From contig JBEPYN010000002.1 of assembly GCA_041641305.1 (NCBI GenBank), positions 416,001 through 480,000 of the forward strand: 64,000 bases of DNA, given 5' to 3'. This document shows, in pieces, positions 2,436 to 48,417 of this stretch. The position numbers and the translations under genes were made by a program. A model generated the notes under the pieces. That model saw only the letters and a program-made list of their open reading frames with translations, did not search any database and was not told where the DNA came from. The DNA is from Nitrososphaerota archaeon (GTDB taxonomy: Archaea > Thermoproteota > Nitrososphaeria_A > Caldarchaeales > Caldarchaeaceae). Position 1 is the stretch's first letter; every line of letters starts with the position of its first letter.

Positions 2436-2437
2436 CG

Positions 2438-16746: not shown

Positions 16747-16753
16747 CCCAGAA

Positions 16754-27522: not shown

Positions 27523-27836
27523 CTTCTCAGCCGCGCCACAATGACGATGAACAGGGTTGAGCCGGCCACGAGAGCACCCGGAATTAGCTGTCCGCTCAGG
27601 AGCAGCGCCCCGGAGAAAATGGTCCCTAAAATGATGAATTTATTGAGCTGAGGAGCAGGTGCGTTCCTCGTCCTCCTACCGGCGCCTCTTCTAAGTATGT
27701 CGACAGGCCTGCCATTTTCGTCCCTAACGTACTCGTCATATTCATCGGCCTCGGAGAAGTTTTCCCTAGGTAGCTCAGGAGCTGTGCTAGCCCTCTTCCT
27801 AACCCCAGACTTTAGTCTGAACTCTTCCTCTTCCAT
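27519..27836 (-). CDS. small membrane protein (VirB3-like position)
   Basis: 105 aa with C-terminal TM pair, directly upstream of the VirB4-like gene. Confidence 0.55.
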   Translation of the reverse strand: MEEEEFRLKSGVRKRASTAPELPRENFSEADEYDEYVRDENGRPVDILRRGAGRRTRNAPAPQLNKFIILGTIFSGALLLSGQLIPGALVAGSTLFIVIVARLRR

Positions 27837-30800: not shown

Positions 30801-31798
30801 GTTCCGTTAATCAAGGACATGCGGTAGCCCTCATCATAGGCGTTGTAGTATCCTCCGCCACCTGTGTCAAATATGGTCTTCTGAGGAGTCTTCAAAACAT
30901 CTCTCATTATTTCTATTATTTGTTCGCAGGTCAGGTTGCCTCCGCGGGGCAGGTTAGCGCATACCTTGTCCCTGTCTATCTCGGGAGGCTGCGTAAACTC
31001 AGCAATGAGAAACGGGTACCACAACGTGTCGTTCTCCCTGTCATAAACCGTGTACCTCACGCCTCCCTCCATTTCGCCAACGGCCCTGCTGGCTATGCTA
31101 AGCTTCTGGATATCAGCGGCCTCCATGATGCTCTGTTCCACATAGCCCGGCGGAGGAGATGCCGCCACTATCGCGACCGGGAGGGCTAGAGTCAAAGCCG
31201 CTCCCAGCACCATCATTGTCTTCCCCGCTGTTCTCGCGAAAGGAATAGCGAAGAGCGCCGCTCCTATAATAAAGAGGGTTGGCGCGACGCCTTTAGCCAA
31301 GCCCACGAAGGCGACCACACCCTCCATGAAGACAACAACCCCCGACAACAGCTTGGCAATGAATATGAGCAGGTTGAAGACGGCGCCGAAGATGAAGCTC
31401 GCTATCGCGGACAGAAGTATCCCCACGCCCGAGAGCCAAGCCGGCAGAAGAGCAAGCATCACGATGGATTGCAACGTGCCGAGACTCATCGCCGCAAGGT
31501 TCACCGCCTTGAGCCACTCGAACGCCATGTCCCTGCTCGCATGCGCCGACGCAATGGCGTCGTCGAAGGTGGCCGTCAAGGGCAGGCTAACTCCCATGCT
31601 CTGCAGGTAACCTGCTAACACAGGCTTGAGCAGCGCGATGCTTCCGACGATAGACAGGATGGCAGCCGTTGACCAGCTATGCATCATCGCTGTCCACCCC
31701 CATCTCCTGAACTGGGGGAGCGGGAGGCTGAAGAGAACTAAGCCGGCTCCGTATACGAGGGCCGCAATCCCGAAGGCAATCTCAGCTTCGTTAGCCAT
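27812..31798 (-). CDS. very large CedA/TedA/VirB6-like membrane protein
   Basis: N-terminal YGAGLVLFSLPLP..RRWG multi-TM region similar to 31805..32659, a large Cys-containing soluble region with many NxT/S sites, a further TM helix and a charged tail. Confidence 0.6.
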   Translation of the reverse strand: MANEAEIAFGIAALVYGAGLVLFSLPLPQFRRWGWTAMMHSWSTAAILSIVGSIALLKPVLAGYLQSMGVSLPLTATFDDAIASAHASRDMAFEWLKAVNLAAMSLGTLQSIVMLALLPAWLSGVGILLSAIASFIFGAVFNLLIFIAKLLSGVVVFMEGVVAFVGLAKGVAPTLFIIGAALFAIPFARTAGKTMMVLGAALTLALPVAIVAASPPPGYVEQSIMEAADIQKLSIASRAVGEMEGGVRYTVYDRENDTLWYPFLIAEFTQPPEIDRDKVCANLPRGGNLTCEQIIEIMRDVLKTPQKTIFDTGGGGYYNAYDEGYRMSLINGTYARRVWFLNMWVTLYDTSPRNITVHKVPEDPDPSAMACTGTDPDREFFFGGWDDGSISCNPYLIWKERWESFWKASNLYNETSLWMVAANRNTTFVWFTEQPWGTKKEDLNIYGITLPKVRETRWQVNETYTCETDGNSSTVETCWRWHYYTRGDYSGNKSVYFVYLNMDDYDVCWHIDPIHGGPVNGTDICERRLGTPSWSYEFRPFTSNPPSWNHTVMDSSFAEIQAAGFIDGYGPYVLPQSVEAIDRNEPLELNAPTQQKKVFVTANQTIIRDSYDGYPEVPDSLSYSFRVIFTASESMPYLPPVEWHKFDEDREYTRELASGGYVPDNILGISVDNFRGEWARYQNFRQGLYRDGPSHEATRRINAELLRYREEHWENNATIFNTSIPLAKSVSTILYKYAKGTYAGSDIQISVLPILMTDVGSVRILKPLSELIGQSFAIGLAIGLLAIIIDSFQSLVGGQSVMMKYVVGKVGNITHAAKFMTTFTGAVRRMARVDMLARWAQRRQENQLLKAATEAREKNRKTWDKVAERTRFSGIMERMLDKRRELEGRGGIVARAERLALGVMTRSYTVRVAMSAVRSDPKFAESVRNAYAERLTMKGYSLEEATRKADLLIGWAKQSRIVEARPEKVAQGFANMLKPSTMSQRITLVDSFARSDFGKHVVGAALIEGILSPTVGKAAGWMSMRLSASGHASAGAFFGYVSDQLDGRIRAPAAFTLAADNNPFSPEGVKPLVTPAYVPEFRTGILHPAGSAEQPLIRQHDYGGDPSDVKHAYDMHRSYGTPEDYKRFQERFEEYMWIVANPYDPDFRLTNLMDGGDRIVVETSMGTYEVSKNELDEFMKVMEEMGARAHAASAKGYDVSPADYQPGPGVSELQQQYMDSLREKIISGADDPKTLDELFSVADSLGKREDAASFVERVGSESDGEFKVPWWAAGREDVSEHMSWGDFGKKENDVGDTVESQMPPEWGQAGAESGKNGGENEWKRKSSD

Positions 31799-31804
31799 TT
31801 CTCA

Positions 31805-32659
31805 TCACCCGAAACCAAGCGAGGCTGCTACCCCGCCTATACCCTTGCTCAGGGCAGAGGCAGCCGCCATCACAATACCCCATCCAGCGAGCGAGCCCAA
31901 GGCGAACCTCCACATCCGCATGATGGTGTTGTCCTGAGCGTTAAGCAGCCAGCCCACGAGGTCGAAGACATTTTGAAAGGTTCTACCGAGGTCTGTGCTG
32001 GCGACATCGTCAAGACTGCAGGGCTTTGCCTCCCCAGCGCTGCAAGCTATCAGGCCTATGGCCGGTATGTAGGGGCCGGCGGCTGCGAAGGCCAAAGACG
32101 CCGCCAGAAGCCAGCCGCCTATACCCTTCAGCTTCCCACCGGGAACCGCTAAAAGCGCCACACCTATCGGCGCAAGGGCGACCGCTAAGCTTCCGAAAAC
32201 GGTCAGGAACACCATCAGAGTGAAGCCTGTGATTAACGTGACAGAGAGCGCGAGCCCCGGCAGAGAGGCGATTACGCTAAAGATGTTGGCTATCGCCGGC
32301 CCCACTATAGGTATCAGAGCAGTACCCATTCCTATGCCCGTAATGATGGCCAAAATGGTGAAAGCCTTCATACCAAGCCCCATGTATATGTCAGGTAGTG
32401 AAGCACAGGGCGTCCTCTCCGCAGAAATAGCTTGGGACACCATGCCGACTATGCCGTTGAAGGAGTTAGCCGTCCCGAGGATAGCTATGAAGCCGGCTGA
32501 GACGAGGGCATAGCTGATAAGCTGTCCACCCCAAGAACTTCCATGACCTCCGGGTAGGGGCAGCTTGTGTAGGGCGAGTCCAATCCCATAGCCTATGGCT
32601 ATAAGCGACCAAGCAACAGCCGCCCAGGCTCCAAGCCCGGAGTATTCGCAGGCTATCAC
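31805..32659 (-). CDS. CedA/TedA/VirB6-like polytopic membrane protein
   Basis: YGIGLALHKLPLP...WGGQLI pattern, several TM helices and C-terminal ALSKGIGG, as in crenarchaeal CedA-type proteins. Confidence 0.6.
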   Translation of the reverse strand: MIACEYSGLGAWAAVAWSLIAIGYGIGLALHKLPLPGGHGSSWGGQLISYALVSAGFIAILGTANSFNGIVGMVSQAISAERTPCASLPDIYMGLGMKAFTILAIITGIGMGTALIPIVGPAIANIFSVIASLPGLALSVTLITGFTLMVFLTVFGSLAVALAPIGVALLAVPGGKLKGIGGWLLAASLAFAAAGPYIPAIGLIACSAGEAKPCSLDDVASTDLGRTFQNVFDLVGWLLNAQDNTIMRMWRFALGSLAGWGIVMAAASALSKGIGGVAASLGFG

Positions 32660-32731
32660 GGATAACCACCTCTAACCATAAACCATATTTTGAAAAAATA
32701 TGGAGGGGGTTGGCCCCAACATGTTCACCTA

Positions 32732-33175
32732 CTAGAATCGGGGCACCTCCCATGGGCTGCTCGGCTGCGGCGGCGTGGTACCAAAGCCAGCGCCTGTCGT
32801 GGCCACGGTTGCGGCAAAGTAGAGCAGGTAGACGCCTAGGGCTGCCAGCCCGGCGAGTATCAGGGCGCTGTCAAGAAGCTGGCCGCCGGCGTCCTTGGTT
32901 CTATGGCTCCCCGTCGGCAGGAACTTTAATGCTAGACCTGAGCCCAGCAACGCAGCCGCTATCAGGAGCAGGAGCTGCCCAAACCCTGACACCGCGCCCT
33001 GAAACGTGTTGGCTATCGCCGCAGGCCCTCCTCCTTGCCCCGTCTGTTGAGCCATTGCAGCAAGCAGCAGGTGCGCGTTGGCAGCCGCTAGGCTTATGGT
33101 CGTGGTCGCGAGCCGCAGCCTACCGCTTCTCAGCCCTTTTACGAGGTTTGACCCTTTCCGGGTGTGGTGCTTCAT
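32732..33175 (-). CDS. VirB2/CedA1/TedC-like pilin precursor
   Basis: Leader followed by two hydrophobic helices separated by a short charged loop (KFLPTGSHRTKDAGGQLL); first gene of the transfer operon. Confidence 0.6.
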   Translation of the reverse strand: MKHHTRKGSNLVKGLRSGRLRLATTTISLAAANAHLLLAAMAQQTGQGGGPAAIANTFQGAVSGFGQLLLLIAAALLGSGLALKFLPTGSHRTKDAGGQLLDSALILAGLAALGVYLLYFAATVATTGAGFGTTPPQPSSPWEVPRF

Positions 33176-33196
33176 GGCTTTCTCGAGACCATCCTC

Positions 33197-33588
33197 AAAT
33201 ACGATAATACTTAAGCTTTGGCTGAATCTGAACACTTTTGGTCGGCCACCTAGGTCGGCCAGTTTGGTCGGCCACTCTGGTCGGCCAAAGCTTATAAAGG
33301 AGCATTTTTCATATAACCCCGTTATGGCCGCTTCTTAATATAGCTATGTTCGCATTTTTCGCACTTGGCTCTATAAGCCTTTTATCACCATTTCTTTACT
33401 TTTTAATACTTTTTCAGGAATTTTTTGGTTATCTGGTATTTTTTTGTGTGCAAATTACCTTCCGCATTATTGATAAGCTTATCGGTATGGTTTTTCATGT
33501 TGGTCGGCCACATACTGTATATATTTTTGCTGGTCGGCCAGTTTGGTCGGCCACTCTGGTCGGCCAAAGCTTAAGTATTATCGTGTTT
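33197..33588. repeat. iteron array and AT-rich core bounded by 29-bp inverted repeats (putative origin / divergent promoter region)
   Basis: GGTCGGCCA at 33240, 33253, 33266, 33279, 33502, 33532, 33545 and 33558; inverted repeats 33197-33225 and 33560-33588 (27/29 match), each containing AAAGCTTAAGTA. Confidence 0.85.
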
Positions 33589-33599
33589 TAGGGTTGTTG

Positions 33600-34545
33600 A
33601 ATCCATGCGAGATTCGATGAAGCCTGCGGCTGGCTGAGCCGGGATGGGGCGTCAGCGGAGCGCTCCGACGACGGGGTCCGGCAGGTACCCCGTCGCCCGA
33701 GGGCTGGGCGCCGGCATGCCTGGCCCAAGGTCCCAGGCATTCGCATGGATGAATGCCGAAGCCGGCGATGGATAGGTGGTCCGTGACGGAGAGGGGCTCC
33801 CCGGAGGGTGAGAAAGCCACGCACCACACCCGGAAACCCCGCCCAGGGAACCCCGTAGAATAAACCATCAAGCCCCCATATATTGTTTACCGGGGGTCTC
33901 GGGTGGGGTATATGATGGGTGTCCCGTGAGCGGTCGGGGTCAGGGCCCGGGGTCATCCCGGGTGAGGCTGGATGGTCCAGCAGCCTGCGACGGGTAGCCT
34001 CGGGAGCTTGGCGTGGTCCACCAGAGTATATCCGGGGGATTGTGGGATGATGGCTGGGGCTGGCTCGGCTGCCCAAGGGGGCTGGGCAGGGCTTGGATGG
34101 TTCATCCAAGTGGGTGCTACCCCGCCGGAGCTGGTGCAGCCGGCTGGTGTCCATCCCTTGGACGGTTTATCCAAGGGGGTGACGCCGGCCCAACCCAGAG
34201 CCATTAGAATCACTAGAATGTCCTCTCCGTCTTCTCTGGGCTTCCGCGTCCGGGTTGAAGCCGCCCGCCCAGAAGCCGCTACAGATAACAGCCCCACACG
34301 GACCGGGGTGCGGCGAAGAGGCGGCTAAAGACCCGGGACAAGGGGGAGAACGGTTGGCTGATTCTCCCCGCCATCCCGGAGCCCACACCCGGGAAACTCT
34401 TCCCGGCAACGCCCGTTCACGCGGGCGGGGGGCTCAACAACACAATGCCCCCCGAAGATGCCAGGGAAACTCCGGAGGTGGGCTCTCCGGAATTGTCGTC
34501 CGGCGGGGGGAGACGCCCTCGATGGCCCGTCGGGGTTGCGAGGTG
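33600..34545. other. GC-rich, hairpin-dense non-coding region
   Basis: Many perfect or near-perfect stems and no credible ORF. Confidence 0.6.
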
Positions 34546-34561
34546 AAAGAGAAATGAAGAC

Positions 34562-34813
34562 ATGATGATTCTTTTGCTTGACGGCGGCTCTATCAGTGCA
34601 TCGATAGCAAGCGCTATAAGAGATGTGATTCTGTTGATTTTCGACATCCTGACCCCGATAATCAATATAATCGGGGTCGGCATGATTGCAATAGGGCTCC
34701 TGCTGGGGCTCGGACTCCGGCAGGAGTTCCTCGGCTTCCGATTAGCTATCGGCGGAGCGCTGGCTCTTCTAACTGTCCATGTTCTAGTGCCATTTTTATT
34801 GTCATTCATCTGA
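34562..34813 (+). CDS. small two-TM pilin-like (VirB2/CedA1-like) protein
   Basis: 83 aa with two hydrophobic helices joined by LRQEFLGFR; GAGGTG ribosome-binding site upstream. Confidence 0.6.
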   Translation: MMILLLDGGSISASIASAIRDVILLIFDILTPIINIIGVGMIAIGLLLGLGLRQEFLGFRLAIGGALALLTVHVLVPFLLSFI

Positions 34814-34997
34814 CTTCTCTGACCTCTTAGCGACCCAAACTCCCCTCCTTTTTTTCCGTGGAGGCTTTCTCCCCCCTTTCGTATTGTCTGTTAGTGTCCG
34901 CCCTCGCGGGCGGAGCCTCCGGTCCCCGAGTCCGGGAGGCTTCCGCCCTTGTGGGGGAGAGGGGCGGAGAAGCCTCCCGGCGGGAGGGGTGAAAGAC

Positions 34998-35135
34998 ATG
35001 AGTGACTTCCAGAAGGTGTGGGGAAGCGAGGACAGCTTCTTAACCTACCAAGCCAAAACTCGGAGGTCATACCTCCGAGTCCGGGCTAGTAGGTGGGAGG
35101 AGCTCGTCCTCCATCTCCAGAACCAGCTCTTTTGA
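34998..35135 (+). CDS. small hypothetical protein (45 aa)
   Basis: ATG after a GGAGGGGTG ribosome-binding site: MSDFQKVWGSEDSFLTYQAKTRRSYLRVRASRWEELVLHLQNQLF. Confidence 0.45.
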   Translation: MSDFQKVWGSEDSFLTYQAKTRRSYLRVRASRWEELVLHLQNQLF

Positions 35136-35273
35136 CTGGCTGTGACAGCGCCAGCCAGCCAAAACACCCCTTCTTTTTTTCCTTCATATGCCCATACGCC
35201 TGAAACATGGCGTCCACCCCATAATCATTAAATGGGGTGGCGGGGGTGGTTGGCTGGCTCGCGCCTGGCTCCA

Positions 35274-35557
35274 TGCCCGTGTGCTGGGGCTGCATAGGCC
35301 TTGCCCGTGAGCGGGTCTATGCATCCTGCGCCCTATACACCGGCCACCCCCGCAGGGTCTTGCCCGTGTGCGGGCCCTGTGGTGAGCTTGCCCGTGAGCG
35401 GCTCCGGTGTGTGGGGGGCCTGCTTGCCCGTGTGCGGCGGCTGTCTGCAGGCAGGCGCTTGAGGCGGGTGACAGGGATGTCTCCTGCACCATGTGTTTGC
35501 CGGACTTGCCCGTGAGCGGTCGGCATACATGTGGGGAGCCTTCCTGCCCGTGCGCGG
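35274..35557 (+). repeat. seven dispersed copies of TGCCCGTG(A/T/C)GC(G/T)G
   Basis: Copies at 35274, 35302, 35361, 35389, 35425, 35507 and 35545; related copy near 33922. Confidence 0.85.
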
Positions 35558-36121
35558 TTGGCTCCAGCGGGAGACACCCAAGCAGACGACATACAGACGA
35601 TGTTCAGAGGTTGTTCAGATGCTCCGCCAAGGAAGCTCTCGGAGCCATCTTATCCATGGGAGAGGCATGGTGTCTCTTCCATGGGCTTACTCTATCAAGG
35701 CGCCGTGGGGGTGCTTTGATGGAGAGGCTCCTAGCCCTGTTGGCGGAGACAGGTGACGAATAATGCTTCCGAATATTTCTGACGACATCCCCGAAGATTG
35801 ACACTGGTTCCATGGATTAAGCAGCCGATTCAACAATACCTAGGAGATACAGAGGTTCAAGGTATTCTGATAAGCAGTCGGATGACTCTAGATAACTACA
35901 ATGGTCTCAACAGGTCTCTAATAAACGCCGACAAAAACAGGTCAAAGACTATCAACGATACTTAGCACCTCCCTCGGCGGGCCAACCCCGGGAACAGGGG
36001 CTGGGAGGATGCGGAGACTCTCCCGGGCCGCATAGGCCCGCCTCCCCACAAAAACACGGGGAGGGAAGATGACCCTCCAAATCCTCCAAAAAATCCCCTG
36101 GCTCCCGGGGGTAAGGTCTGG

Positions 36122-36466
36122 ATGGCGACCAGGGACTCCGCGGATGGGCGGGTCCGACCCGTCCGTGGAAACACTGCCCATCGGCCATATGGTGTGGGGG
36201 TGCAGAAGAAGTTGACAAGTAGTCTGCTGGTACCCGGATTGATAGCTCTGGCATTGGTCTATGGGATACAGTTGGTCAACGAGGGGCATCTGTTCGAAGG
36301 TGTTCTGTTGATGGTTGTAGGTATCTTTGGCGGAGTGTATGCTGAATACCTTCTGCAGAGATGGCGCATGAGTTACTGTGACTACTGCGGGGGCAAGATG
36401 AGGAAAGATGTCGGCGGACTATACTACTGCGACAGATGCAGACGCTTCGCTCCTCGACGGGCCTAA
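36122..36466 (+). CDS. small membrane protein with C-terminal Zn ribbon (true start likely near 36193-36199)
   Basis: Two TM helices, then CDYC...CDRC. Confidence 0.65.
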   Translation: MATRDSADGRVRPVRGNTAHRPYGVGVQKKLTSSLLVPGLIALALVYGIQLVNEGHLFEGVLLMVVGIFGGVYAEYLLQRWRMSYCDYCGGKMRKDVGGLYYCDRCRRFAPRRA

Positions 36467-36480
36467 GAGGGCGTGCAGGC

Positions 36481-37944
36481 ATGTGGGCTAGAGTTTTTGT
36501 GACACTGATAATCATCTTTGGCTTCGTAGGGTACGCTTGGTATGCAGCCATGTTAGCCTCTCAGAGATTGTTTGAACGTGGAATCATCAAAGAATCACCT
36601 ATGCCAACAATAGATGTCAAAACAATAACAACACAGGTGGCTCAGTACACAGGCATCGCTGTAACCCTGCTAATGATAGCCATTGTGGTAAAGAGGGTCG
36701 TTGAATCGGGTAGACTTCTGGGCGTCATTAAAGTCTCCGACCTTCAGAGGCATCTACTACTGCTTGGACCAACCGGTAGCGGCAAAACAAACACTGCTAA
36801 ACAGGCGATTGCCTTAGCCGTACGTCGTGGTGTCAGGGTAATCGTCATCGACTGGAAAGCCCTCTTCTCTCCGCCAGCGTTTTTCACGTCTCCCCAGCTC
36901 AGTTCCGCCGCATAGGGTTCGCGTGGAGCTTCTGGCGGAGCTGGGAGGGCCCAGAAAGGCGAGTACGTTAACTTCATCAAGGGAGCCTCCGTCGTCAGGA
37001 AACTCAACGTGTGGGACAACGGTGGTAGGTCGCCGAAGGAATGCGCTGTCCTCGCTGTCGAGACATTGAGAGAAATTACACGCGATATCGCAGATGTTTC
37101 ATCCGCCAGCGCAGCCCTTCTCCTGAGGGAGCTTGTAAAGCTCTACGGGAGAGGGGTGCCGAAGACATCCGACGTAGTTTCAGCTCTTGAGAAGTTCATA
37201 AACACCGCAATGGCGGAGCGGAGACTTGCCGAGGCGAATATGGCTTCTGCATTGCTTAGAAGGATGATGTGGCTCCAGATAGACGAGGAGAGGCCTGCGA
37301 AGAACATCATAGGCTCTGACAGGGTTGTTGTCTACGACTTATCAGAGCTCGGAAGCGTCTACCTGAAAACCATCTACAGCCTCAGCATCCTTTCAAAGAC
37401 CTACTACGGGGCCCTTAGACAGGGACAGTCCCAGAAACTAGAGACGCTGGTGATTGCAGAAGAGTGCCAAAACTACATACGTGGTAGGCGTTTCGACGAG
37501 CCTCCGTCGATTGGTGAGAGAATGGCTAACGAGCTGAGGGCCTACGGCGTCGGCATGGTCCTGATAAGCCCGGACCCTGTCCAGATACCCTGGCACCTCG
37601 CCAGAGACGTTGCAGCAGTAATATCCATAGGACTTCAGGCGATACCCGACAGCGTCAAGGACCTGTTGAGAACAATTGACCCCAAACAGGCGAAGAGAGT
37701 AATGATGGGTAAGAAGGCCTACGTCTATTACAACGGCAAACTGAAGACAGCCTCTCCGCCCAAGCCTCCAAAAGAAATAGAACTAAACGTTGACGTAAAA
37801 GAGGTGATTGAAGAGACTAAGCCTGAGGAGACTGTCGAGACTACTGCTACACAACCAGACAACTCTGGGGCAGAGGAGAGTGTTCAGACAATGCCGATAG
37901 AGCAGAAGGAGCCTTTGGAGGAGGCCCAGAGAGGCGTGAATTGA
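36481..37944 (+). CDS. membrane-anchored HerA/VirB4-like ATPase, spliced: join(36481..36857,36957..37944), 454 aa
   Basis: Walker A LLGPTGSGKT in exon 1; removing the BHB intron gives VIVIDWKGEY; Walker B region VIAEECQN and LRAYGVGMVLIS in exon 2. Confidence 0.85.
36858..36956 (+). other. BHB-type mRNA intron 1 (99 nt)
   Basis: Central helix CUGG/CCAG, bulges AAA/AAA, long inner stem; contains an in-frame TAG. Confidence 0.8.
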
Positions 37945-37990
37945 TAGAGAGCCGGGGAAACCTCCTCTAAGGCTTGAAGAAGATGAAGAG

Positions 37991-38755
37991 ATGGTCGATG
38001 AAGACGAAGAGCAGGTGACAGAGGCCCCGCATGGGCGCATACCCCCACGGGAGGGAGTCCCGCCAAGATGATGTGGTGGTTGTGAGCGCCCCGGGAAAGC
38101 CGAACCACAGACACAACAAGAAAAAGCAGAAGAGGAGCAGGCAGATGAAACCACTGGTGGATTCCCCCTCCACGGCCACATGGTCGTGGAGGAGGCTTTC
38201 GCTGACGAGTCGGTTCTACGATGTGTTAGATGTGGGGCTTCGGCCTCGCTGACAGAGGCTACACAACTCATGGAGAAGCCTTGCCAAGAACCTCGAATGA
38301 CGCAGGATAACCTTCAGACCCGGTGCGGATGTGGACGGCCGGCGACAAAGCTTATGCCGTCATACGACCCGATAACCATGACGTTTAAAGACCTCTGCCT
38401 GTGCGACGGCTGTGCCAACGACTACCTCAACATCCTCAGGAGGTCAGGCCCAGCCCTAGGCAAGATGAGGGGGAGAATACCTGCGAACGGCTATTGGTTC
38501 AACCTTTACAACACCGTCTTCCAGGAGCTGGCTGGGACATACCCGTGCCCAGCCTGCGACCAGTTCTTCGACGACCTGTATTCCGCGGTCAAACACTTCG
38601 GCGAAAAACACATCGACAAGACAAAGACTCCAGAGGAGGTTGTCATAGACGGGGTTCCCGCCCTTAGGACATGGCAATACATATGGTGTACAAAATGTCT
38701 GAGGTTCTTCGAGAACGAGCGACATTTCCGTTCACATCTCCGAGACCATAGGTGA
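37991..38755 (+). CDS. acidic N-terminus plus multiple Zn-finger protein, spliced: join(37991..38031,38098..38755), 232 aa (possible ATT start at 37940)
   Basis: CxxC pairs and C2H2-like CPAC...H....H and CTKC...H...H; the frame is open across the intron except for the intron TGA. Confidence 0.7.
38032..38097 (+). other. BHB-type mRNA intron 2 (66 nt)
   Basis: GGC-CCCG-CAU-GGGCGC pairs with GCGCCC-CGGG-AAA-GCC, a strict helix-bulge-helix-bulge-helix; contains an in-frame TGA. Confidence 0.8.
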
Positions 38756-39120
38756 AGCAGATGAAGTTCAGGGGAAAAATTTACAGGGATGGGGGAAGGC
38801 TGAAGCTGGTCTTTGACAAGCCCCTCCCGCGTGGGAGGGTGACGCTGCTGCTGACGAGGGTGGACGGAAAGGCTATGGAGTTGAAGTTCGATACAATGAT
38901 AACCAACAACGACCCCTATCGATTAAAGTGTCGGTTGCCACCGTTCCCGGAGCTGAGGCCCGGGGCGGTGGTCGAAGGAATAATCGAAGACGAGCTTAGA
39001 TGCCGCTGGTGCGGAGCCAAGTGCTCCGCACTCATCAACAACCTCTGCGACCATTGTTTCGAGGTATTCAACAGCCCCTACAAACCCCCTCTGGGAGAGG
39101 GTTGGGGAAGGCTGACGTAG
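38752..39120 (+). CDS. hypothetical protein with C-terminal Zn finger
   Basis: CRWC...CDHC; GTGA overlap with the upstream gene. Confidence 0.65.
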   Translation: MKQMKFRGKIYRDGGRLKLVFDKPLPRGRVTLLLTRVDGKAMELKFDTMITNNDPYRLKCRLPPFPELRPGAVVEGIIEDELRCRWCGAKCSALINNLCDHCFEVFNSPYKPPLGEGWGRLT

Positions 39121-39285
39121 ACCACCGGCCAAAAACCCCAACCTCCGGGCGGTGACCCGGGGTAAAACCCGGGCGCCCCCGGCTATTTTTTCCAAGGGGC
39201 GTGTCCCGTCGGGAGCTTTCCCGGCGGGGCATGCGCCCCCTTGGCCGGGAGGCTCCCTAAGAGGGCCGCTCCGGAGGTCTAAAAA

Positions 39286-40221
39286 ATGGGCAACAACGAG
39301 AAGTGGACTCTGCCGGTGGTCTATGGAAACCGGAGGGTTCGTAGGGAGCTCATCGAGGTGCTGATGACTGTTGAAGAGTACAACGGATACACGGTGCTTT
39401 ACCTATGGTTCCACTTCCCCTACGACTGGTTTACAGCGCTAAAACCCTATGACTGGGAGCCTGTTGCAATAGCGTTCAAAGACAGCCGACCCGCCAGAAT
39501 CTTCTGGAGACCTCACTGGGCGCTTAGATGCACACGGCCTGTACTTGTGGATAAGAAGACTGTTGTCTTCTACATAAGCCCCATCAAGGGAAACGCTCCG
39601 AGATGCTCCCACTTCGATGTACTGCGGTCCATACTGGAAGACCCGTCGACCTACGGAATACCTTATCGAAAGTTCAAAGAGCTACCGCTGAAAAGCCTTC
39701 TGAAGGATGGGTGGCCGCCCGAGCACGAAGCCCGCGCCGAAAGCTTCAGAGAATACGTTCACCGAGGCCTTGAAGACATAAAAAGATGCGGGGGCGTATA
39801 CAGCGTGGTAATGGGCTTCTTCACAGACCTCCTCAGGGCCTACCTTATGGCTAGGAGGAGAAACCTCGACGGCTTCTACTATTATCTTAAGACGGCATGG
39901 GAAAACACCACAGAGAGGTTCAGGAGGAGCGGACCCGGCTACGAGATGTACAACCTACTCGTCGCCGTCAAGTACCTGCTGATGCTGCAGAAAGCGACTG
40001 GTGAAGGGCCGACGGAGCGGTTCTGGCGGGACATGGAAGGCGACCCTATCCTTCCCCCAGTGGTTAGAGCGTTGACAGGCCACATCTGGTACCCCATAGG
40101 GTTGCTGATAGCAGATGGGTATACGCCAGCCCAGCCGTTCAAAGACTTCGTTGATAAAAAATGGAGACAATGGTTCAGAGACGCCCTCAAAGCCTGCAAT
40201 AAACACGCAAACGAAGCCTAA
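39286..40221 (+). CDS. hypothetical protein
   Basis: 311 aa with a GGAGGT ribosome-binding site; LWFHFPYDW...YDWEPV block of unknown family. Confidence 0.75.
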   Translation: MGNNEKWTLPVVYGNRRVRRELIEVLMTVEEYNGYTVLYLWFHFPYDWFTALKPYDWEPVAIAFKDSRPARIFWRPHWALRCTRPVLVDKKTVVFYISPIKGNAPRCSHFDVLRSILEDPSTYGIPYRKFKELPLKSLLKDGWPPEHEARAESFREYVHRGLEDIKRCGGVYSVVMGFFTDLLRAYLMARRRNLDGFYYYLKTAWENTTERFRRSGPGYEMYNLLVAVKYLLMLQKATGEGPTERFWRDMEGDPILPPVVRALTGHIWYPIGLLIADGYTPAQPFKDFVDKKWRQWFRDALKACNKHANEA

Positions 40222-40590
40222 ACCCCCCACCTTTTTTCCAAGCCACGTGGTCCCGTCTGGGGTTTTTCCCTGGGCGGGGCCATGTGGCTCCGCTCCGGGG
40301 GAGGCTCCATGATGGGTTGCGGCGTCCAACGCCCCTGTGACAGTCCCCGAGGCGTGTGAGCGCGTAGGGGATGAGGGGCGAGGGCCTGGCCGCCTCCTCC
40401 ACGTGGAGGCCGGGGTTTGACCAAGCCCCTTTCCCTCGGGCGCCATGCAGAGGGTTTGGGAGAGGTGTGGCTGAACACCGTGTTCCTATTCCCCTCATCA
40501 GGGAGGGGTGTCGGGGCACGGCTAGTAGGCCATGCTTCCCCAAATTCCTCTGCGTGGTTGTCGGAAAAAGGGGCTGGGGAGGTGATGGAT

Positions 40591-40695
40591 ATGAAAAACT
40601 GGAAGAGGTGTTTAAAATGCGAAGAGTTGAACGACATAAACGCAGCATTCTGCCATTACTGCGGTAGAACGTTAGAAGACGCGGAGGAGGTCTAA
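40591..40695 (+). CDS. small Zn-ribbon protein (34 aa)
   Basis: CLKC...FCHYCG; GGAGGTG ribosome-binding site. Confidence 0.55.
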   Translation: MKNWKRCLKCEELNDINAAFCHYCGRTLEDAEEV

Positions 40696-41001
40696 ATGTA
40701 CCTAGTGAAGCTGCACACGGACCTTCGGGTACAACGACTCGTCTCGCGACCAGTGGAGATATTCTTTGGAGACTTGGTGACGACGATACCGAAGTCGGCT
40801 ATAGTCTGCGATGCATGCAACCAACAGGTCGCAGTCACGGAGCAGGACCTGAAAAACTTAGCGATGGGGTACGCTGTTGTAGACGGGGAATTCATCCTAG
40901 AGGTCGTATGTGAGGAATGCAGACAGCGCTACTTCGACGACATCCCGGTGTTCGACACATTAGAGGATGCCGAGGAGGTCTACGAGAAGAAGGTGAGGTG
41001 A
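40696..41001 (+). CDS. Zn-binding protein, paralog of 41004..41285
   Basis: CDAC...CEEC..R...PVFDTL. Confidence 0.7.
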   Translation: MYLVKLHTDLRVQRLVSRPVEIFFGDLVTTIPKSAIVCDACNQQVAVTEQDLKNLAMGYAVVDGEFILEVVCEECRQRYFDDIPVFDTLEDAEEVYEKKVR

Positions 41002-41003
41002 AG

Positions 41004-41285
41004 ATGGAGTTCCTAGTTTCGCTATTTACTGACAAAGAGCTCTTGAAAAAACTGCTGACCCCAAAGATTGTCATTAATGATTATGGTTACACGATTGTTC
41101 CGGCTAGGCTTGAATGCAGCCACTGTGAGCAGAAACTGCCTGTGAGGGAACCGGGAGGCTTTGCCCTCTTTGACACGGAGGGGACTCTATGGGAACTACT
41201 ATGTGAAGAGTGTAAGCAACGATTCCATTCAGGAACACCGGTTTACGAAACTTTGGACCAAGCTATTCCAAAGCAGAGGTGGTGA
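41004..41285 (+). CDS. Zn-binding protein, paralog of 40696..41001
   Basis: CSHC...CEEC..R...PVYETL; GAGGTG ribosome-binding site. Confidence 0.7.
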   Translation: MEFLVSLFTDKELLKKLLTPKIVINDYGYTIVPARLECSHCEQKLPVREPGGFALFDTEGTLWELLCEECKQRFHSGTPVYETLDQAIPKQRW

Positions 41286-41287
41286 AG

Positions 41288-43088
41288 ATGGTCAGGGTAG
41301 TGGAGCTTCGGGAGGAGACTGAGCTTCTAGAAAAACTCAAGAATCGCTTTCCACACACTAGTCTACGTAGATATCAGGCCGACATCGCTAATAGGGTCTA
41401 CGAGAGCCTTTCCAACGGCTCTAGCATTCTTCTGGAGGGCCCTACGGGGCTGGGGAAGAGGCTATGAGGAGACTGTTTATGGGGGGTGGTTGGCTGGCTG
41501 GCGTCTCCGAGCCTCCTATACAGCCCCTGTATGGGCCGCGGTGAGCGCCTACGCGGAGGAGAAAGGTCTGAGGGTTCTATGGCTCACCCGGACGGCGTCC
41601 CAAGTAGCTCACATCGCCAGCGAGATAGGATGCATGCCCATCTACGGCCGCCGGCTTCTCTGTATCCATGAGACGGTTAGCAAGGTTGAGCAGAGACGGT
41701 TCAACGCGGCTTGTAGAGTTGTACGACTATCCGGACGTTGCTCATACTATCCCGGAAGGCCTAGCCAAATAAAGGCGAAGACTGTTGGAGAGATTAAAGA
41801 TGCCGGTAGGAAGTCGGTCACATGTCCCTACGAGCTTCAGCTGACATCGATGCCATACTCGACGTCGCTGGTCGCCACCCATAAACAGTTGTCTGTAGTT
41901 TCCTGGCTTTTGGCAAAATGGCGTTGGACCCGCGAGCGAACCATCTTGGTGCTCGACGAGTTCCAGAACATCTTGAAGACTGTTCTCGACCTCTCAAAAG
42001 ACGCCATAAGCCTGGCAACGCTCCACAAGGCCGCCGCAGAGGCAGCAAGGTATGGCTTCAGGGATATTTCCAGCAGTCTTTCAGAAGCTTATCAAAGATA
42101 CAAGGCGGTTGACGTTGACGAGGCTGAGGTAGAAAACCTACTGCCCAGCTTCGAAGAGCTCTTCGAGGCGGGGCAGGAGATACAGGCTAGGAAACTTGAG
42201 GAGAATGTTGTACCCGCCAGCTATGTGTTGAGCGTCGCAGACTTTAAGGCTGCTCTCGGCCAGCAGAAGCCCCTCCTAGTCAGGGAGGGTGAACGGGTTT
42301 GGCTGGAGGCGCTAGCAGACCCACGCGAGGAGCTTGAAAAGATTCTCGAAGGCTGGAGAACGGTCATAGCTATGACGGCCACGATGGATGCGGAACTCGT
42401 TGAACGCATGGCTTCAACCCAAGTGACGCTGTTGCGAGCAGGGTGGCCCTTCGACGATAATCTGAAGGCATACATTGTCAGCGGCCTTACGACGAGATAC
42501 AGGGACAGGGATGTGGAGCTCTATGAAGATGTCCGATGGCTTATAGAACAATCTCATGGAATGAGGACTCTCGTCTTCCTACCCAGCTATGAATTTGCTT
42601 CAATGATTCAGAAGAGGCTTAGCGACGCTATCGCCGAGCAACGGGGGATGACGCAGGAACAGGTGGAAGCCACGGCCGCTGAATTCGCGGAGGGTGGAAA
42701 AACGCTTTTAGCCGTCTTCGGTGGAAGGCTGGCAGAGGGCATCAACCTCCAAGCCGACTTGGTTATGCTGGTGGGCATACCATTCGCGAAACCATCACCG
42801 CGAACAAAGAAGCTCGAGGACAAGCTTGAGAATGTCTTTGGGAGCAGTGACCTTTCCCGGCTACATGGACTAGTTTTACCGGCCCTCTTTGCCGCCGTGC
42901 AGGCCGCCGGTAGGGCTGTCAGAGGCCCCAATGATAGGGCTCTGGTCCTGCTCGTCGACGACAGATACCGCCGTTTGACAAAACACTTGCCCAGATGGTT
43001 CAGAGACTTGGTCTCAGATAAGCCGGTCAAGCTCACAGATGTTCCCATTCTATTGGATGAGTGGTTGTCATGGATGAAGAGCGTTTGA
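41288..43088 (+). CDS. XPD/Rad3/DinG-family FeS helicase, spliced: join(41288..41458,41520..43088), 579 aa
   Basis: Q motif RRYQ; Walker A GPTGLGKT is rebuilt only after intron removal; FeS cysteines (LC...C...C...CPY), DEFQN, TAT, EGIN, GIPF and QAAGRAVR. Confidence 0.9.
41459..41519 (+). other. BHB-type mRNA intron 3 (61 nt) containing a kink-turn
   Basis: GGGGCUG-GGGA-AGA-GGC pairs with GCC-UCCU-AUA-CAGCCCC; causes a frameshift and contains a TGA. Confidence 0.9.
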
Positions 43089-44512
43089 GACACGTTCTTG
43101 AACGCATCCGCAGACAGAACATCAACTACGTGAAGCTCAGAGGACTTGTCAGCCGATTCATGACTCTCAACCCCGAGGCAGACCCAGAAGCAATAGATTG
43201 GACAGCCGTCTACGATGACTCCCTAAGCTACGACGAACTCGTCGAAGCATTTGAAAAAGAGTATCCCATGTACCGGTGGCGTGAGACAGCTCCCGCAGAT
43301 GACAAACAAATCGAGGACATGCTGGTGAACCATATCCTCAACCAGGTCGAGGACCTTACAGAAGAGTCTCTCAAGTCGCTCGTCAATGCCTTGGAGGAGC
43401 GGCTGGAGGCTCTACGGCAGGCCGAAACCCCGGCATCTCCGACGGAGCAACAACCCGAACATACACAGATGCAACATCCTCAGCACCAACCGCCGACTAT
43501 GACTGAAAACATACAACAGCCAGCGCCACAGCCGAAGGTAACCCTCAAGCTTCTCGCATCCTACCCCTTCCTAGCGGAGGCTAGGGAGGTGGTTAGGGGC
43601 GTGAGCTTCGAGGGTTTACCCAGGGCGGTATACAAAAGAGCCCGGGAGAGGCTAATGGAGGCTCTCGAACGGGGAGAGCTGGGGGTTGTTCCCCGGCTCG
43701 ATGAACCGTTCGTGGAGCTTCTCTCCTTTCCCGTGGCGAAGGCCGTTGTCCACACAATCGACGACGACTGGCTGAAAAGGCGATGGGCCCTCGCAGAGTC
43801 AGCGAGGGTCGAGAGGCTTCTACTGAAGGAGAATGCGGATGTCTCAGAATGGCTCCTCTCCCGGCTACTTGAGGTCAGGCGAGAGGGAGAGGAGTATGCG
43901 CTGAGGTTCACTGATTACCTAAAGCTTGCTGAAGGCCTTACCACCGATATCTCATGGAAGCTAGTAAACCAAAAACTGCATCGAGGCTGGGTCTTCATAA
44001 CAAAGACTCGTCTCATACGACTCATCAGACAAAAACTCTACCAACTTCTCTATAACAGCTTCCAGCAGACGCCCAAACTGACAAAAATACCTCAACAAAT
44101 CGCCGAAATGGTCGCCGACATAACCGAGGAGCTCCAAAAAATCAAAGCCCGGGCAGGACGGGTCACACCCGTCAAAGGCGCAATACCGCCCTGTATGAAG
44201 ACGATTAGCGATAGGCTGGCGGACGCCAGCCACACAGAGAACTTCGTATACGCCGCCTACTTGGTCAATACGGGATACAGCATCGAGGAAATCGTTGATG
44301 TCTTTAGGAAGAGAGCTGACTTCGACGAGAGGATAGCACGGTATCAGATAGAGCATATAGCGGGGCTGAGGGGGAGCCGTGTGAAATACCGGCCACCTTC
44401 ATGCTCCCGCATGCGGGAACTCGGACTATGCATCGAGAACGGAAGACTATGCCCACCGAATATCCACAACCCACTACAATACCGACCTAGACAACAGCGA
44501 CAACCCACCTAA
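43061..44512 (+). CDS. priL: DNA primase large subunit (PriL) with N-terminal extension
   Basis: YPFL..A, RRWALAES, WKLVNQ.L..GWV, PPCM, DFDERIARYQIEHIAG and YRPPSC...GLC....C. Confidence 0.85.
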   Translation: MVVMDEERLRHVLERIRRQNINYVKLRGLVSRFMTLNPEADPEAIDWTAVYDDSLSYDELVEAFEKEYPMYRWRETAPADDKQIEDMLVNHILNQVEDLTEESLKSLVNALEERLEALRQAETPASPTEQQPEHTQMQHPQHQPPTMTENIQQPAPQPKVTLKLLASYPFLAEAREVVRGVSFEGLPRAVYKRARERLMEALERGELGVVPRLDEPFVELLSFPVAKAVVHTIDDDWLKRRWALAESARVERLLLKENADVSEWLLSRLLEVRREGEEYALRFTDYLKLAEGLTTDISWKLVNQKLHRGWVFITKTRLIRLIRQKLYQLLYNSFQQTPKLTKIPQQIAEMVADITEELQKIKARAGRVTPVKGAIPPCMKTISDRLADASHTENFVYAAYLVNTGYSIEEIVDVFRKRADFDERIARYQIEHIAGLRGSRVKYRPPSCSRMRELGLCIENGRLCPPNIHNPLQYRPRQQRQPT

Positions 44513-44667
44513 ACACCCCCTATTTTTTCTTTCCCCGATAGGAGGCCCTTTCCGCCGCTCTCCGGCGGGAGGGGTTCCTCCTGTCGGGGAGAGGTGGACT
44601 CAGGCCTCCCGGGAAAGCCATGACATTAAGTCATGGTACCGGACCCGGCCACCGGGGTAAAGGTGGC

Positions 44668-45066
44668 ATGGACTCGTCTCCCGAGAGGCTGTTTGATGAC
44701 TCGGGAGCGCCCGCGGTTCCAAGGCCCGCCGCGGGCGACAAGTGCCAGGGCCTGAGTTCGGGGGGTGGTTCGACTTATGAGCGTCTGCTGGAGCGCTACG
44801 GCGGCTTCTTCGAGGAGCTTGGCTATGGTTGTCTCGCCAGCTTTAAGCATCTGATTGAGCAAGTGGAGGTGACTATCGATACGGCGACATCTAATGATGT
44901 CAACCTGTTTGCTAAGCTCCATGTGCTAAAGTCTGCGAGGGCCTCGGTAGAAGTATTTACGGAGTATTATAGTCGATTCCTGCCACCTACTGTCGTCAAT
45001 AACCTGCGAGCTGACCTGACATTTCTGCTTGAGCGTGCTGAGGAGGTGGTGTTGACTTTTGGCTGA
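44668..45066 (+). CDS. hypothetical helical protein (start uncertain)
   Basis: Protein-like from about 44770 (TYERLLERYGGFFEELGY...); the upstream part lies in a hairpin cassette. Confidence 0.5.
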   Translation: MDSSPERLFDDSGAPAVPRPAAGDKCQGLSSGGGSTYERLLERYGGFFEELGYGCLASFKHLIEQVEVTIDTATSNDVNLFAKLHVLKSARASVEVFTEYYSRFLPPTVVNNLRADLTFLLERAEEVVLTFG

Positions 45067-45970
45067 ATTCATAGACCCCACCATTCTGAAAGGGTGGTGG
45101 GGTTCCGAGGAATACCAGAGGCTGTTATCCTTCGAGCCGGAAAATGCAGGTGACTACTATCGGTTACCATTCGCCAAATACAACGAGCTCTTTCCGTTCA
45201 TCAAAGTCAAGATTGAGCACCCTGCAGTGATGAACCCATACTTGGCGATTTTCCTTTGGCGGCGTTACGTAAAACCAAATGATGTAATAATCGACCCTAT
45301 GGCTGGGATAGGGGGTACACCCGATATGTAGGGGCCCAGCTTTATCCCAGCCATAGCCTGCAGATTGACCAATGATAACCACTTAATCCTCAACGATATT
45401 GAGTCGACTTACGCCAGACTCTCTGAGGAGCTTCTTTCGGAGATGCTGGTCGTTACTAATCACAGCACCCTGCTGGACGTCTACAACGTAAACGCTGCCT
45501 CTCTTTATGAACTTCTTAGACCAAGAGGACTTGCTGGAGGCGTACGGAGGAGGGTTATTATTACCTCTCCTCCGTATGGCCTCCTCAGGCCCTGTGATAG
45601 CTTCAGCCCGAGGTTTGGCAGACTGACGGTAACTTCCGCCGGTAACCTTAGCGTGATAACCGGTAAACACTTTAGGGCGGCTTGGCTGGGCGTGCTGACT
45701 TCGATGTATCTCTGTCTCAACCAGTTCCATAGAAACCGTGACTTGGCTGTGATTGTCCTCAAAAACTTCAAGAATAACAATGTGGAAAAGGCTGTTGGAA
45801 AAAACCTCGTCAATTTAACGGTTGAACTCGCGGAGTTCGTTGGATTCAAACATCTCGAGACGCTGAAGTTCAAGATTTCAGGCAGCCACTTCGCCAGATA
45901 CCACGACATCAAGCAACATGTCCATGACCTCTGGCACGAATATGCGCTGGTCTTCCGCAAGGTGGTGTAG
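45059..45970 (+). CDS. amino (N4-C/N6-A) DNA methyltransferase, spliced: join(45059..45318,45340..45970), 296 aa
   Basis: HPAVM, motif I IIDPMAGIGGTF (rebuilt by splicing), NDIE, motif IV ITSPPY and HEYALVFRK. Confidence 0.85.
45319..45339 (+). other. BHB-type mRNA intron 4 (21 nt)
   Basis: 14-bp perfect exon-exon stem CUAUGGCUGGGAUA/UAUCCCAGCCAUAG plus two G-U pairs, helix GGGU/GCCC, bulges ACA/AGC; contains an in-frame TAG. Confidence 0.9.
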
Positions 45971-46819
45971 ATGAGGATTTTCGCTGATGTTCATAGGAAA
46001 AAGGATGACAGCGGCTACCGCATCACATATACAACTGACGGCGAAGTCTTTAAACACGTTGATTCTCCGATGGACATCCCCGCGCAGGCAGGAGACGAGG
46101 TATTCGTTGACACTATACCGATAATCCACACCGACGCATTCATAGAGCTACTGAGGAGAGGTGTAGAGGTCTATTATCTACGAAGACTCTCACTTATTGA
46201 AAAGACAAGACAGAGACTGGGGATACCGAAGTCAGCCAAAAATGACGTAAAAATTCTGATGAACATTGAGAAGAAATGGTTCAAGAGAGTTGACGAGGAC
46301 TTCTTGAGCATGCGTCAGATTATTTCGGCGTTTAGGAGATTGGATAGAGACAAACAGAGGTTGGAGAACCAGTCTAAGGACGTGCCGGAGATTACAAAGG
46401 AAAGCTTCAGGAGGCTCATAGACCATACAGAGGAGGAGAAGTTGGTAATAGCCAAACCAATAGTAGAAGAAGCAGAGAAGAGGCTTTCGTTATTTAGAGT
46501 AGTAGCGCAGGAGCTGGGTGTTGCAGACGATAATCATTCGATGGGAAGAGAGGCACTGGCCGAACTACTGACATACGTAGACTTCAGCAAATCCTTCAGA
46601 AAAGTCAGAGAGTATCTCGGACTCTTCAGAAACCCGAAGACCAAAAACATGAGATACAGCCACAGTTCTAGGAAGGCGTTGAACCGTCTAACAATGTCGC
46701 TGACGGGCAGAGAGCCAAAAGCAGAAGACGAGGAAACAATAGCTTTCAAGATATGGCTGACGTTCCGACGGGAAAACCAAAAGAGGCTGGCGGGCATACC
46801 GGCCCAACAACAGGGATAA
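45971..46819 (+). CDS. short IS110-related protein (RuvC-like DEDD domain, coiled coil, Nop/Tnp-like C-terminus)
   Basis: IFADVH (D6), VFVDT (D47), KSAKND in place of KTDxxD, LRQ-like MRQ...R.L......LEN coiled coil, and FRKVREYLGL. No serine loop seen after YLGL. Confidence 0.65.
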   Translation: MRIFADVHRKKDDSGYRITYTTDGEVFKHVDSPMDIPAQAGDEVFVDTIPIIHTDAFIELLRRGVEVYYLRRLSLIEKTRQRLGIPKSAKNDVKILMNIEKKWFKRVDEDFLSMRQIISAFRRLDRDKQRLENQSKDVPEITKESFRRLIDHTEEEKLVIAKPIVEEAEKRLSLFRVVAQELGVADDNHSMGREALAELLTYVDFSKSFRKVREYLGLFRNPKTKNMRYSHSSRKALNRLTMSLTGREPKAEDEETIAFKIWLTFRRENQKRLAGIPAQQQG

Positions 46820-46910
46820 AACCCATAGGCCGGTATGTCATGTTATAAAACGAACTGGCTCTCTTGCCAGTTATGTCCCAACCTTTAACGACCGGCCTCT
46901 TTTTGGGTTT
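46819..46910 (+). ncRNA. putative dual-guide RNA (bridge-RNA/tigRNA-like loop)
   Basis: Stem AGGCCGGT/ACCGGCCT encloses ATGTC-N9-AACG, hairpin AACTGGC/GCCAGTT, then a second ATGTC-N9-AACG; lies directly after the stop codon of the IS110-like gene. Confidence 0.6.
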
Positions 46911-47017
46911 CCTAGGTGTTGTTTGGTGGTTGCCTGCCAGCCAACCATCCCCCTATTTTTCCCTTCTTTTTGTGATGTTTTTTGTTTATATCATGGGTGT
47001 GGGGTGTTTTCGGGGGT

Positions 47018-47460
47018 ATGGTCTCTGAGCTTGGTTATGGTGGGTTTGTTGCGGAGGTGTTGAGTGGGCTTGGTGTGGGGTTGGGTGATGAGGTTGAGGT
47101 TGTGAGAAATGGGCTGCGGCTCCGCGGGTTTGTGATTGCGCGTTACGAGTATGGGGCGCCTGATGTTCTGGTTTTGAAGCTTTCGAACGGCTACAACATA
47201 GGTGTGCGCATCGATGCCTCTACACAGATACGTAAGCTCTCCTCAGCCGTCGCGCCATCTTTCAACCCACCTCCACCCGCCCAGCCTCGGGAAAACCTGC
47301 CCCGCGTCATGATTGCCAACACAGGCGGCACCATAGCCAGCAGAATAGACTACAGGACAGGAGGAGTTAAACCCACTCTCACTGCATCGGACCTCGTCAG
47401 CATAGTTCCCGAAATCGCGGAGAAAGCAAACGTCTCAACCGAGATTCTGATGCAGGTTGT
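47018..47460 (+). pseudogene. gatD: truncated Glu-tRNA(Gln) amidotransferase subunit D (N-terminal part)
   Basis: VLKLSNGYNIGV and TGGTIASRIDYRTGGV...DL...VPEI; similarity stops at about 47458. Confidence 0.8.
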
Positions 47461-47490
47461 GAGTATGTTTATAACATCATCCAACACAGC

Positions 47491-48417
47491 GTGTCCATGG
47501 TTGTTTTCTTTGGAGCAGTCATTCCACGCTATGACGTGGATTTTAGAAAAGTTGTGGACACGGTTTTGATGTTTGAGGAGCTTGGTTTTTCCTCGCTCTG
47601 GGTAACTGACCACATGCAGCCCCGCCGCGCCTCACGCATCCTCGAGTCATGGACGCTTCTCTCAGCGCTTGCGCCTGTGACGGATGCGAGACTGGGAACG
47701 GTTGTCCTATGCTCATGCTACCGCCACCCCTCTCTTCTCGCGAAAATGGCCGCAACCCTCGACATCATCAGCAACGGACGCCTCGAGCTCGGCGTTGGAA
47801 CAGGGTCGGAGCCACAGGCCGAGGAGCTAGAGGCCCTTGGAATGGAGACATGGAAGCCCAAAGAAAGAATTCCACGTCTGCGAGAATATGTTGAGGTGCT
47901 GCGGCTGCTGCTTTCCGACGGCGACCCCGCCACCTACCAAGGCAGGTTCTACACGCTCAAAAAAGCGATGCGCAACACGCCCACGGTCCAGAAACCACAT
48001 CCACCCATATGGATAGGTGCGCGAAAAGGGAAAATGGTTAAGCTGGCGGCCGAGATAGGCGATGGCTGGAACTTCTACGGCGAAACACTGACAGAATACA
48101 GAGAGGCCGTCAAACATTTTGACGAAGAATGCGACAAGCTAGGCAGAAGACCGAGCAAAGCAATCTTCACAAACCTCCTAATCTACAAGGATGAAACGGA
48201 CAAGAGGGAGAAGATAAAGCACCTCGGCGCCTTCGAAACCGAGGAACAAGCCCTGCGCAAAACCTTTACACTCCTACACGGAACCCCTGACCAAGTCATC
48301 AAACAGGTTGAGGAGCTACAGAGTCTCGGCGTCGGACTCGTCATCCTACGAGACATGGACCCAGAAACATCAAGCATAAAAGACTTCGCCAAAGAAATCA
48401 TCCCATCCTTCAAATGA
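47491..48417 (+). CDS. LLM-class flavin/F420-dependent oxidoreductase
   Basis: GFSSLWVTDH, ESWTLLSALA, RHPSLLAKMAATLDIISNGRLELGVG and PPIWIG. Confidence 0.9.
   Translation: MSMVVFFGAVIPRYDVDFRKVVDTVLMFEELGFSSLWVTDHMQPRRASRILESWTLLSALAPVTDARLGTVVLCSCYRHPSLLAKMAATLDIISNGRLELGVGTGSEPQAEELEALGMETWKPKERIPRLREYVEVLRLLLSDGDPATYQGRFYTLKKAMRNTPTVQKPHPPIWIGARKGKMVKLAAEIGDGWNFYGETLTEYREAVKHFDEECDKLGRRPSKAIFTNLLIYKDETDKREKIKHLGAFETEEQALRKTFTLLHGTPDQVIKQVEELQSLGVGLVILRDMDPETSSIKDFAKEIIPSFK

Follow-up and report, generated by a model that had tools for sequence, protein, structure and literature searches.

A TasR-like protein and a twin-guide RNA matched to the empty insertion site of a 117-kb archaeal island

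The gene and its guide RNA

The window (the whole stretch of 64,000 nucleotides analysed here) begins inside a large island, at the right end of which lie a gene for a TasR-like protein and a stem-loop RNA with two 9-nt guides. The features discussed below are the following.

1..47467, no strand: part of the island that falls in the window, with the TasR-like gene and its RNA at the island's right end
45971..46819, + strand: TasR-like gene, 282 aa (ORF listing, structure model, homolog alignment and profile search)
46804..46926, + strand: single stem-loop guide RNA with long outer stems, a symmetric internal loop and an inner hairpin (folding and covariation)
46840..46848, + strand: guide A, ATGTTATAA, between a box C-like GTC and a box D-like AAC
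46853..46872, + strand: inner hairpin separating the guide units; pairing kept, sequence variable
46878..46886, + strand: guide B, CCAACCTTT, with the same letters as the left half-site
46943..46971, + strand: C-run/T-run 3' of the RNA, present in nearly all copies
46985..47463, + strand: carried 5' fragment of gatD, starting at the gatD TATA-like box; flank of an earlier insertion site
47468..47477, + strand: right junction, with the duplicated TTTAT (47468-47472) and the right half-site (47469-47477)
47491..48417, + strand: luciferase-like monooxygenase gene of the host; the island sits in its promoter region

The reading frame, the stem, the two ATGTC-N9-AACG units and the inner hairpin lie exactly where an earlier reading of the sequence (the original prediction) had placed them. 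The core of the outer stem (46827-46834/46891-46898) encloses unit A (46835-46852) and unit B (46873-46890); the stem extends outward (46804-46825/46904-46926), overlapping the last codons of the gene. The RNA folds with a z-score of -3.9, none of 200 shuffled sequences being equally stable. A search for the twin-unit format found it a single time in the 64-kb window and not at all in five shuffled windows. Two-sided changes are found at 15 of the 33 predicted pairs, mostly in the inner hairpin. The C-run/T-run is probably an archaeal terminator and the end of the conserved module. An Rfam search at the position of the RNA gave no match. In metatranscriptome contigs, which come partly from related copies and show neither level nor strand, depth is greater over the RNA region than over the gene, a difference that carries no weight here.

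Upstream, the stop codon of a DNA methyltransferase-like gene (45059-45970), which is probably broken and has a weak N6_N4_Mtase match, abuts the start of the TasR-like gene; remnants also precede several other copies. A long GC-rich hairpin after a C-run/T-run (44528-44600) is common to the copies L001, L057, L074 and L097, and related contigs have high depth in one RNA run, a weak sign since these are contigs only.

The protein consists of a RuvC-like domain (residues 1-107), a coiled coil (109-171) and a Nop/Tnp-like C-terminal domain. With a structure model of it (pLDDT 90.8), Foldseek retrieved IS110 recombinases and TasR at a TM of about 0.6, and a wide structure search placed TasR first (9MTY, Z 15.2, rmsd 4.2, 246 residues), with ISCro4 at 12.4 and TasH at 12.2. 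Pfam assigned the protein to no family and gave no match to PF01548 or PF02371; Pfam, NCBIfam and PDB sequence searches using the single protein or a close alignment yielded nothing usable, and a weak IS110 match appears in 3 of 44 family members. A profile that includes distant relatives found TaTasR by sequence (E 4e-9), as well as TasH, and did not find IS621. Judged by sequence, the family is nearer to TasR than to IS110. The predicted combination of a RuvC/Nop-fold protein and a single-loop RNA is thus borne out, with TasR as the best match. As a weak negative, longer fused forms of the protein were not found.

D47, K87 and D92 are invariant among the 121 homologs covering the position, D6 is present in 120 with one gap, and position 89 is A, T, S or G and never acidic. 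No conserved serine occurs among the homologs in the loop 219-233, which is short; D6, D47, A89 and D92 in this protein, and the lack of a serine loop, are as originally read. Position 89 aligns to an acidic residue (the D of KNDEND) of active TaTasR. Because TaTasR and nearly all outer branches retain the acid in a tree with a midpoint root only, its loss looks derived. The original suggestion of an intermediate between IS110 and Tas/Nop5 finds no support in this or in the greater nearness to TasR.

Guides, empty sites and junctions

The named homologs come from Caldarchaeales. The present genome (G000) has four full copies of the gene and one stub, and 40 relatives have 0-61 matches per genome, many of them broken; copy number is IS-like and patchy. 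The viral contigs searched contained no relative of the gene. In total 65 RNA units were parsed, each gene having one stem-loop in which the boxes are fixed and the two 9-nt guides are particular to the copy; guide positions 7-9 are almost always A/T. Box C is identical between the two units in 46 of the 65 and box D in 52, and their letters differ from those of published boxes. Within 3 kb of these genes there is no second loop or array; of three stray pattern matches, two are the same in-gene sequence and none is a tandem unit.

Where gene identity is at least 90%, divergence is 7% for the gene, 10% for the scaffold and 50% for the guides, so the two N9 segments vary while their flanks are kept, as had been predicted. 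In some copies that are 97-98% identical, one guide is kept and the other is replaced almost entirely (guide B is the same in L007 and L017 after register correction); recombination between copies could be a source of whole-guide replacement. A divergent subfamily (L064, L080, L087, L091, L092, L094-L096, L098 and L099; E 1e-37 to 1e-63) has an RNA that is built differently and is not fitted by the 9-nt parser, and lies outside the guide tests. The present genome also has a truncated copy of the first 38 codons (G000:C2:514900-515013), 3.4 kb before a full copy and followed by the apparent start of a prolyl-tRNA synthetase gene.

In the present genome, the insertion site is split by a 116.7-kb insertion (G000:C2:346801-463467), and TTTAT is duplicated. 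The right half of the site is guide A (ATGTTATAA) reverse-complemented, and the left half, which equals guide B, lies outside the window at G000:C2:346790-346798. The complete site is guide B plus reverse-complemented guide A, 16 bp with a 2-nt overlap, and forms a TATA box; a target of one guide next to the reverse complement of the other had been foreseen and is found here. Both G009 and a metagenome contig of 98% identity have this site unbroken, the expected number being 6e-4 per genome. Five further empty sites, belonging to copies of other genomes, are intact in the present genome with homologous flanks and an overlap of 2 or 3. All six consist of one guide and the reverse complement of the other, that is, they are read from opposite strands. 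The carrier genome itself contains no intact target, neither perfect nor with two mismatches, because the insertion has split it. The empty sites of three other copies of the present genome were not found among five genomes.

The same relation is seen across the family. An exact reverse complement of a copy's own guide occurs within 1.5 kb downstream in 28 of 63 copies (shuffled guides: mean 0.6, maximum 4), and the other guide occurs upstream in 16 of 65 (mean 3.1, maximum 8); whenever both exact halves were found, they formed the complementary pair. About half of the copies have no exact flank match within the DNA examined. A donor-type orientation of the guides was rejected, since a forward match downstream occurs in 0 of 63 copies; the arrangement is target-type. 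Junctions are TATA-like in 17 of 28 cases versus 1.6% of random positions, and an ORF start lies 15-60 nt downstream at 14 of 28 versus 8%. At the right junction in the window, the TATA-like box lies about 20-30 nt before the next host gene.

The island is of conjugative type, with genes for HerA/VirB4/TrwB-like ATPases, ParB, a RadA-like protein, Hel308-like and XPD-like helicases, primase large subunit and an R-M methylase. The possibility that the 117 kb is a shuffle of native genes was rejected: synteny with G009 ends at the junction, and the three 20-kb pieces tested, out of the 117 kb, are missing from relatives or match them in patches. There is no tRNA at its ends. No tyrosine or serine recombinase and no IS110 was detected in the 99%-complete genome in a loose first look that may miss divergent enzymes. 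PF00589 (tyrosine recombinase) in particular was not detected here, yet it was in 14 of 14 control genomes; the missing match may reflect search sensitivity.

Some further observations concern the island as such. Mosaic non-coding blocks at 34221-36405, 8-11 kb from the gene, recur upstream of other copies (C1 copies, L050 and L081), which suggests recombination among elements within the island. At 33193-33592, a stretch of 42 bp is directly repeated without a mismatch (33253 and 33532), and there is also an inverted repeat of 33 bp. The XPD-like helicase, beside the primase large subunit, is apparently split into a short Walker A ORF (41279-41467) and a main ORF (41490-43088). At another locus of C. 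subterraneum (G009:C1:910000-929000; L127, L128), sequences 74-83% similar to parts of the island point to a related island family.

Other guide-bounded elements measure 1.5, 2.4 and 14.7 kb, and elements lie in both orientations (18 versus 10). In five close C. subterraneum copies, the distance from the left end to the gene ranges over 294-662 nt and that from the RNA to the right end over 109-862 nt; inner ends differ even between copies that are 90-95% identical, and one left end is cut short at a microhomology of 3 nt. The C-5 cutting rule of TasR (PMC12045711) gives a predicted 3' overhang at positions 6-11, and in five 16-bp targets the duplications, 3-6 nt long, all fall inside it; note that these are five cases only, one without a seen empty allele, and that several overlaps come from junctions alone. 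Three 15-bp cases (L086, c2 and c4) and one 18-bp case overshoot the predicted overhang by 1-2 nt. On this small sample, the junctions speak for a staggered break that the host then joined, more than for recombination at a fixed core.

Host fragments, several of which begin at TATA-like boxes, make up a mosaic from the RNA to the right junction. The carried gatD fragment is 87% identical to gatD of the present genome and 92% to that of G009. The C. subterraneum copy L082 carries a gatD fragment as well, and each of the two is closer to gatD of the other species, which suggests transfer between species. Of all 65 guide pairs, none comes nearer to the gatD site than those of these two carriers (3 and 6 mismatches), and guide A of the window differs from it by one base. 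This implies that elements hop to near-match sites and carry the flank along, and that the guides match exactly later, perhaps by selection, perhaps by templated rewriting. In some related copies an old junction is reused as the right end (L008/L014, L016/L020 and L018/L023/L015). At the left junction, the first 84 bp inside the island (G000:C2:346802-346885; L120:2803-2886) match another host locus (C1:308032-307949; G009:1391357-1391440) and end at a TTTTAAA tract; this segment is probably the carried left flank of an earlier site.

Relation to known RNA-guided systems

With TIGR-Tas, that is, TasR and its stem-loop tigRNA (TaTasR, 9MTY; PMC12045711; 10.64898/2026.09.09.750476), the present system shares the RuvC-coiled coil-Nop fold (Z 15.2) without a serine, two 9-nt guides, symmetric boxes that change together, opposite-strand targeting, a hairpin between the guides and an RNA that overlaps the gene end. 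It differs in having a single guide unit per gene and no array, an overlap of 2-3 nt in six of six verified empty sites instead of non-overlapping spacers (18 bp), boxes of the GTC/AAC type instead of CCA/UG or CUU/UG, and the loss of one of the four acidic RuvC residues of active TasR. Furthermore, its natural target is known, namely its own empty site, and it is multicopy and chromosomal with no match in viral contigs.

The IS110/IS1111 recombinases with a bridge (seek) RNA, IS621 and ISCro4 (PMC11208160, PMC13626964; 8WT6, 9T56), have the same fold (TM 0.6, Z 12.4). As in IS110, the loop encodes the left and right halves of the element's own insertion site with a dinucleotide overlap, and the behaviour is multicopy and mobile. 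However, D6-D47-A89-D92 stands in place of DEDD, the catalytic serine and the donor-binding loop are missing, and there are no fixed ends or core; insertions of 1.5-117 kb occur in either orientation with variable duplications and carried flanks. A donor loop that arises only where the ends of a circle meet is made less likely by the variable ends. The GC-rich hairpin at 44528-44600 was rejected as a donor loop, being absent from most copies, minimal ones included.

The OMEGA nucleases TnpB and IscB, for which 'restorative homing' is described (PMC13565253), resemble our preferred reading in that an element-encoded, RNA-guided RuvC nuclease is aimed at the empty site. Here the RNA and the RNA-binding domain are unrelated to theirs, the fold being that of TasR/IS110, no TAM was seen and no partner transposase was found. 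The guide is split between two strands and internal to the RNA, 100-900 nt from the junction, and so, unlike in OMEGA, it is not automatically renewed by read-through into the flank. Box C/D sRNA with Nop5 has a similar Nop-type domain and twin-guide layout (PMC12045711), whereas it uses RUGAUGA/CUGA boxes and RNA targets; what the present guides match is DNA, on opposite strands, where insertions join the host sequence; the RuvC acids are kept, and there is no Rfam C/D match.

The system is therefore neither canonical TIGR-Tas, from which array, overlap and fourth acid separate it, nor IS110, from which DEDD, serine, donor loop and ends do. By analogy, it may best be read as an OMEGA-like homing nuclease whose parts are those of TasR and whose site is specified in the manner of the IS110 target loop. 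No description of this TasR-like family was found in the literature searched, subscription papers lying largely outside its scope.

How the element may move

We consider it probable that an RNA-guided nuclease cuts the empty site and that host repair copies the element in, which would make this a self-addressed homing/insertion system. A dimer of the TasR-like protein would bind the single stem-loop RNA; in an empty site, usually a TATA-like promoter box, one strand would be paired by guide A and the opposite one by guide B, and the RuvC domains would produce a staggered break with 3' overhangs of about 6 nt. If a donor is already at that site, host repair would copy it faithfully by homology (homing). 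At a near-match site, the break would be joined by microhomology, and the gene would move with whatever flanks it, from 1.5 kb up to 117 kb. The insertion would split the target and protect the carrier, and after the hop the guides would turn into exact matches of the new site. The RNA-guided system of the original prediction is supported as to format and target, but that prediction did not see that the target is the empty site of the element itself, nor that the gene and its RNA are part of mobile DNA (1.5 to 117 kb).

Some observations sit less well with this reading. Cutting may be weak, given that no homolog has an acid at position 89; the reuse of right ends at old junctions makes enzyme-defined donor ends possible; and the wholesale replacement of one guide in copies 97-98% identical is poorly explained by stepwise mutation. 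Three carboxylates are what RuvC nucleases like TnpB and Cas12 use. The original expectation of weak or no nuclease activity is disfavoured because three carboxylates are invariant here, unlike in known dead TasRs, which lose carboxylates at the first positions (10.64898/2026.09.09.750476), and because the duplications fit a TasR-type staggered cut; with one of the four acids lost, the activity stays putative. A bolder version, which we put forward tentatively and rather doubt, is mobile DNA with neither recombinase nor ends: the 282-aa enzyme and its hairpin would suffice to place cargo as long as 117 kb in a 16-bp site of their choosing, and the guides would be actively rewritten from the new flanks at each move in a spacer-acquisition step.

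Alternatively, the complex itself could perform strand transfer as a serine-less recombinase or transposase that has a target loop only, by transesterification of the RNase H type, with old junctions (half-site matches) serving as donor ends. The 2-nt overlapping core has the geometry of the target-binding loop of IS110, right ends are reused at old junctions, copy numbers reach an IS-like 61 matches per genome, half-match recombination is reported for IS621 (10.64898/2026.08.31.748434), and no other integrase was detected in the genome. Nevertheless, we think this unlikely: the catalytic serine and the donor loop are both missing, and enzyme-made joints should be fixed, whereas here the duplications vary in length and position, the overlap is 2-3 nt, both orientations occur and flanks of unrelated loci are carried.

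Still less probable is a targeting factor that does not cut, in which the complex would bind and bend or melt the empty TATA site and recruit an undetected integrase or the host recombination machinery. The lost acidic residue and the RadA-like, helicase and primase genes on the island would suit such a role, and Faure et al. speculated that Tas may aid integrases (PMC12045711). Against it, all 121 proteins keep the three acids, which known dead TasRs lose, the smallest elements (about 1.5 kb) have no common partner gene, and the duplications agree with the cut positions. An RNA-guided repressor of the neighbouring promoter, comparable to dead TasR repressors, is very improbable: the TATA-like junctions and nearby ORF starts would agree with it, but the half-sites of a carrier lie 1.5-117 kb apart while TasR requires its two spacers to lie no more than a 2-bp gap apart (PMC12045711), insertion into promoters accounts for the promoter match, and there are targets without a TATA-like sequence (L063).

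Faure et al. (PMC12045711) named as open questions what Tas guides target in nature, what biological role they play and where the spacers come from. The present family ties a TasR-type protein to DNA mobility, with a target geometry like that of the IS110 target loop, and supplies guide-target pairs by the dozen, with both filled and empty alleles, for direct tests of cutting, cut position and mismatch tolerance. On the homing/insertion reading, it would also offer a route by which a 117-kb conjugative-type island could integrate without a recognisable integrase. Being small (282 aa), from a hot-spring archaeon and without a sign of a PAM, the protein may be a possible tool. Three distant relatives (L158-L160; P0189, P0177 and P0212) have all four acids (KSDEND-type) and a long structured RNA after the stop codon, and are candidates for fully active enzymes.
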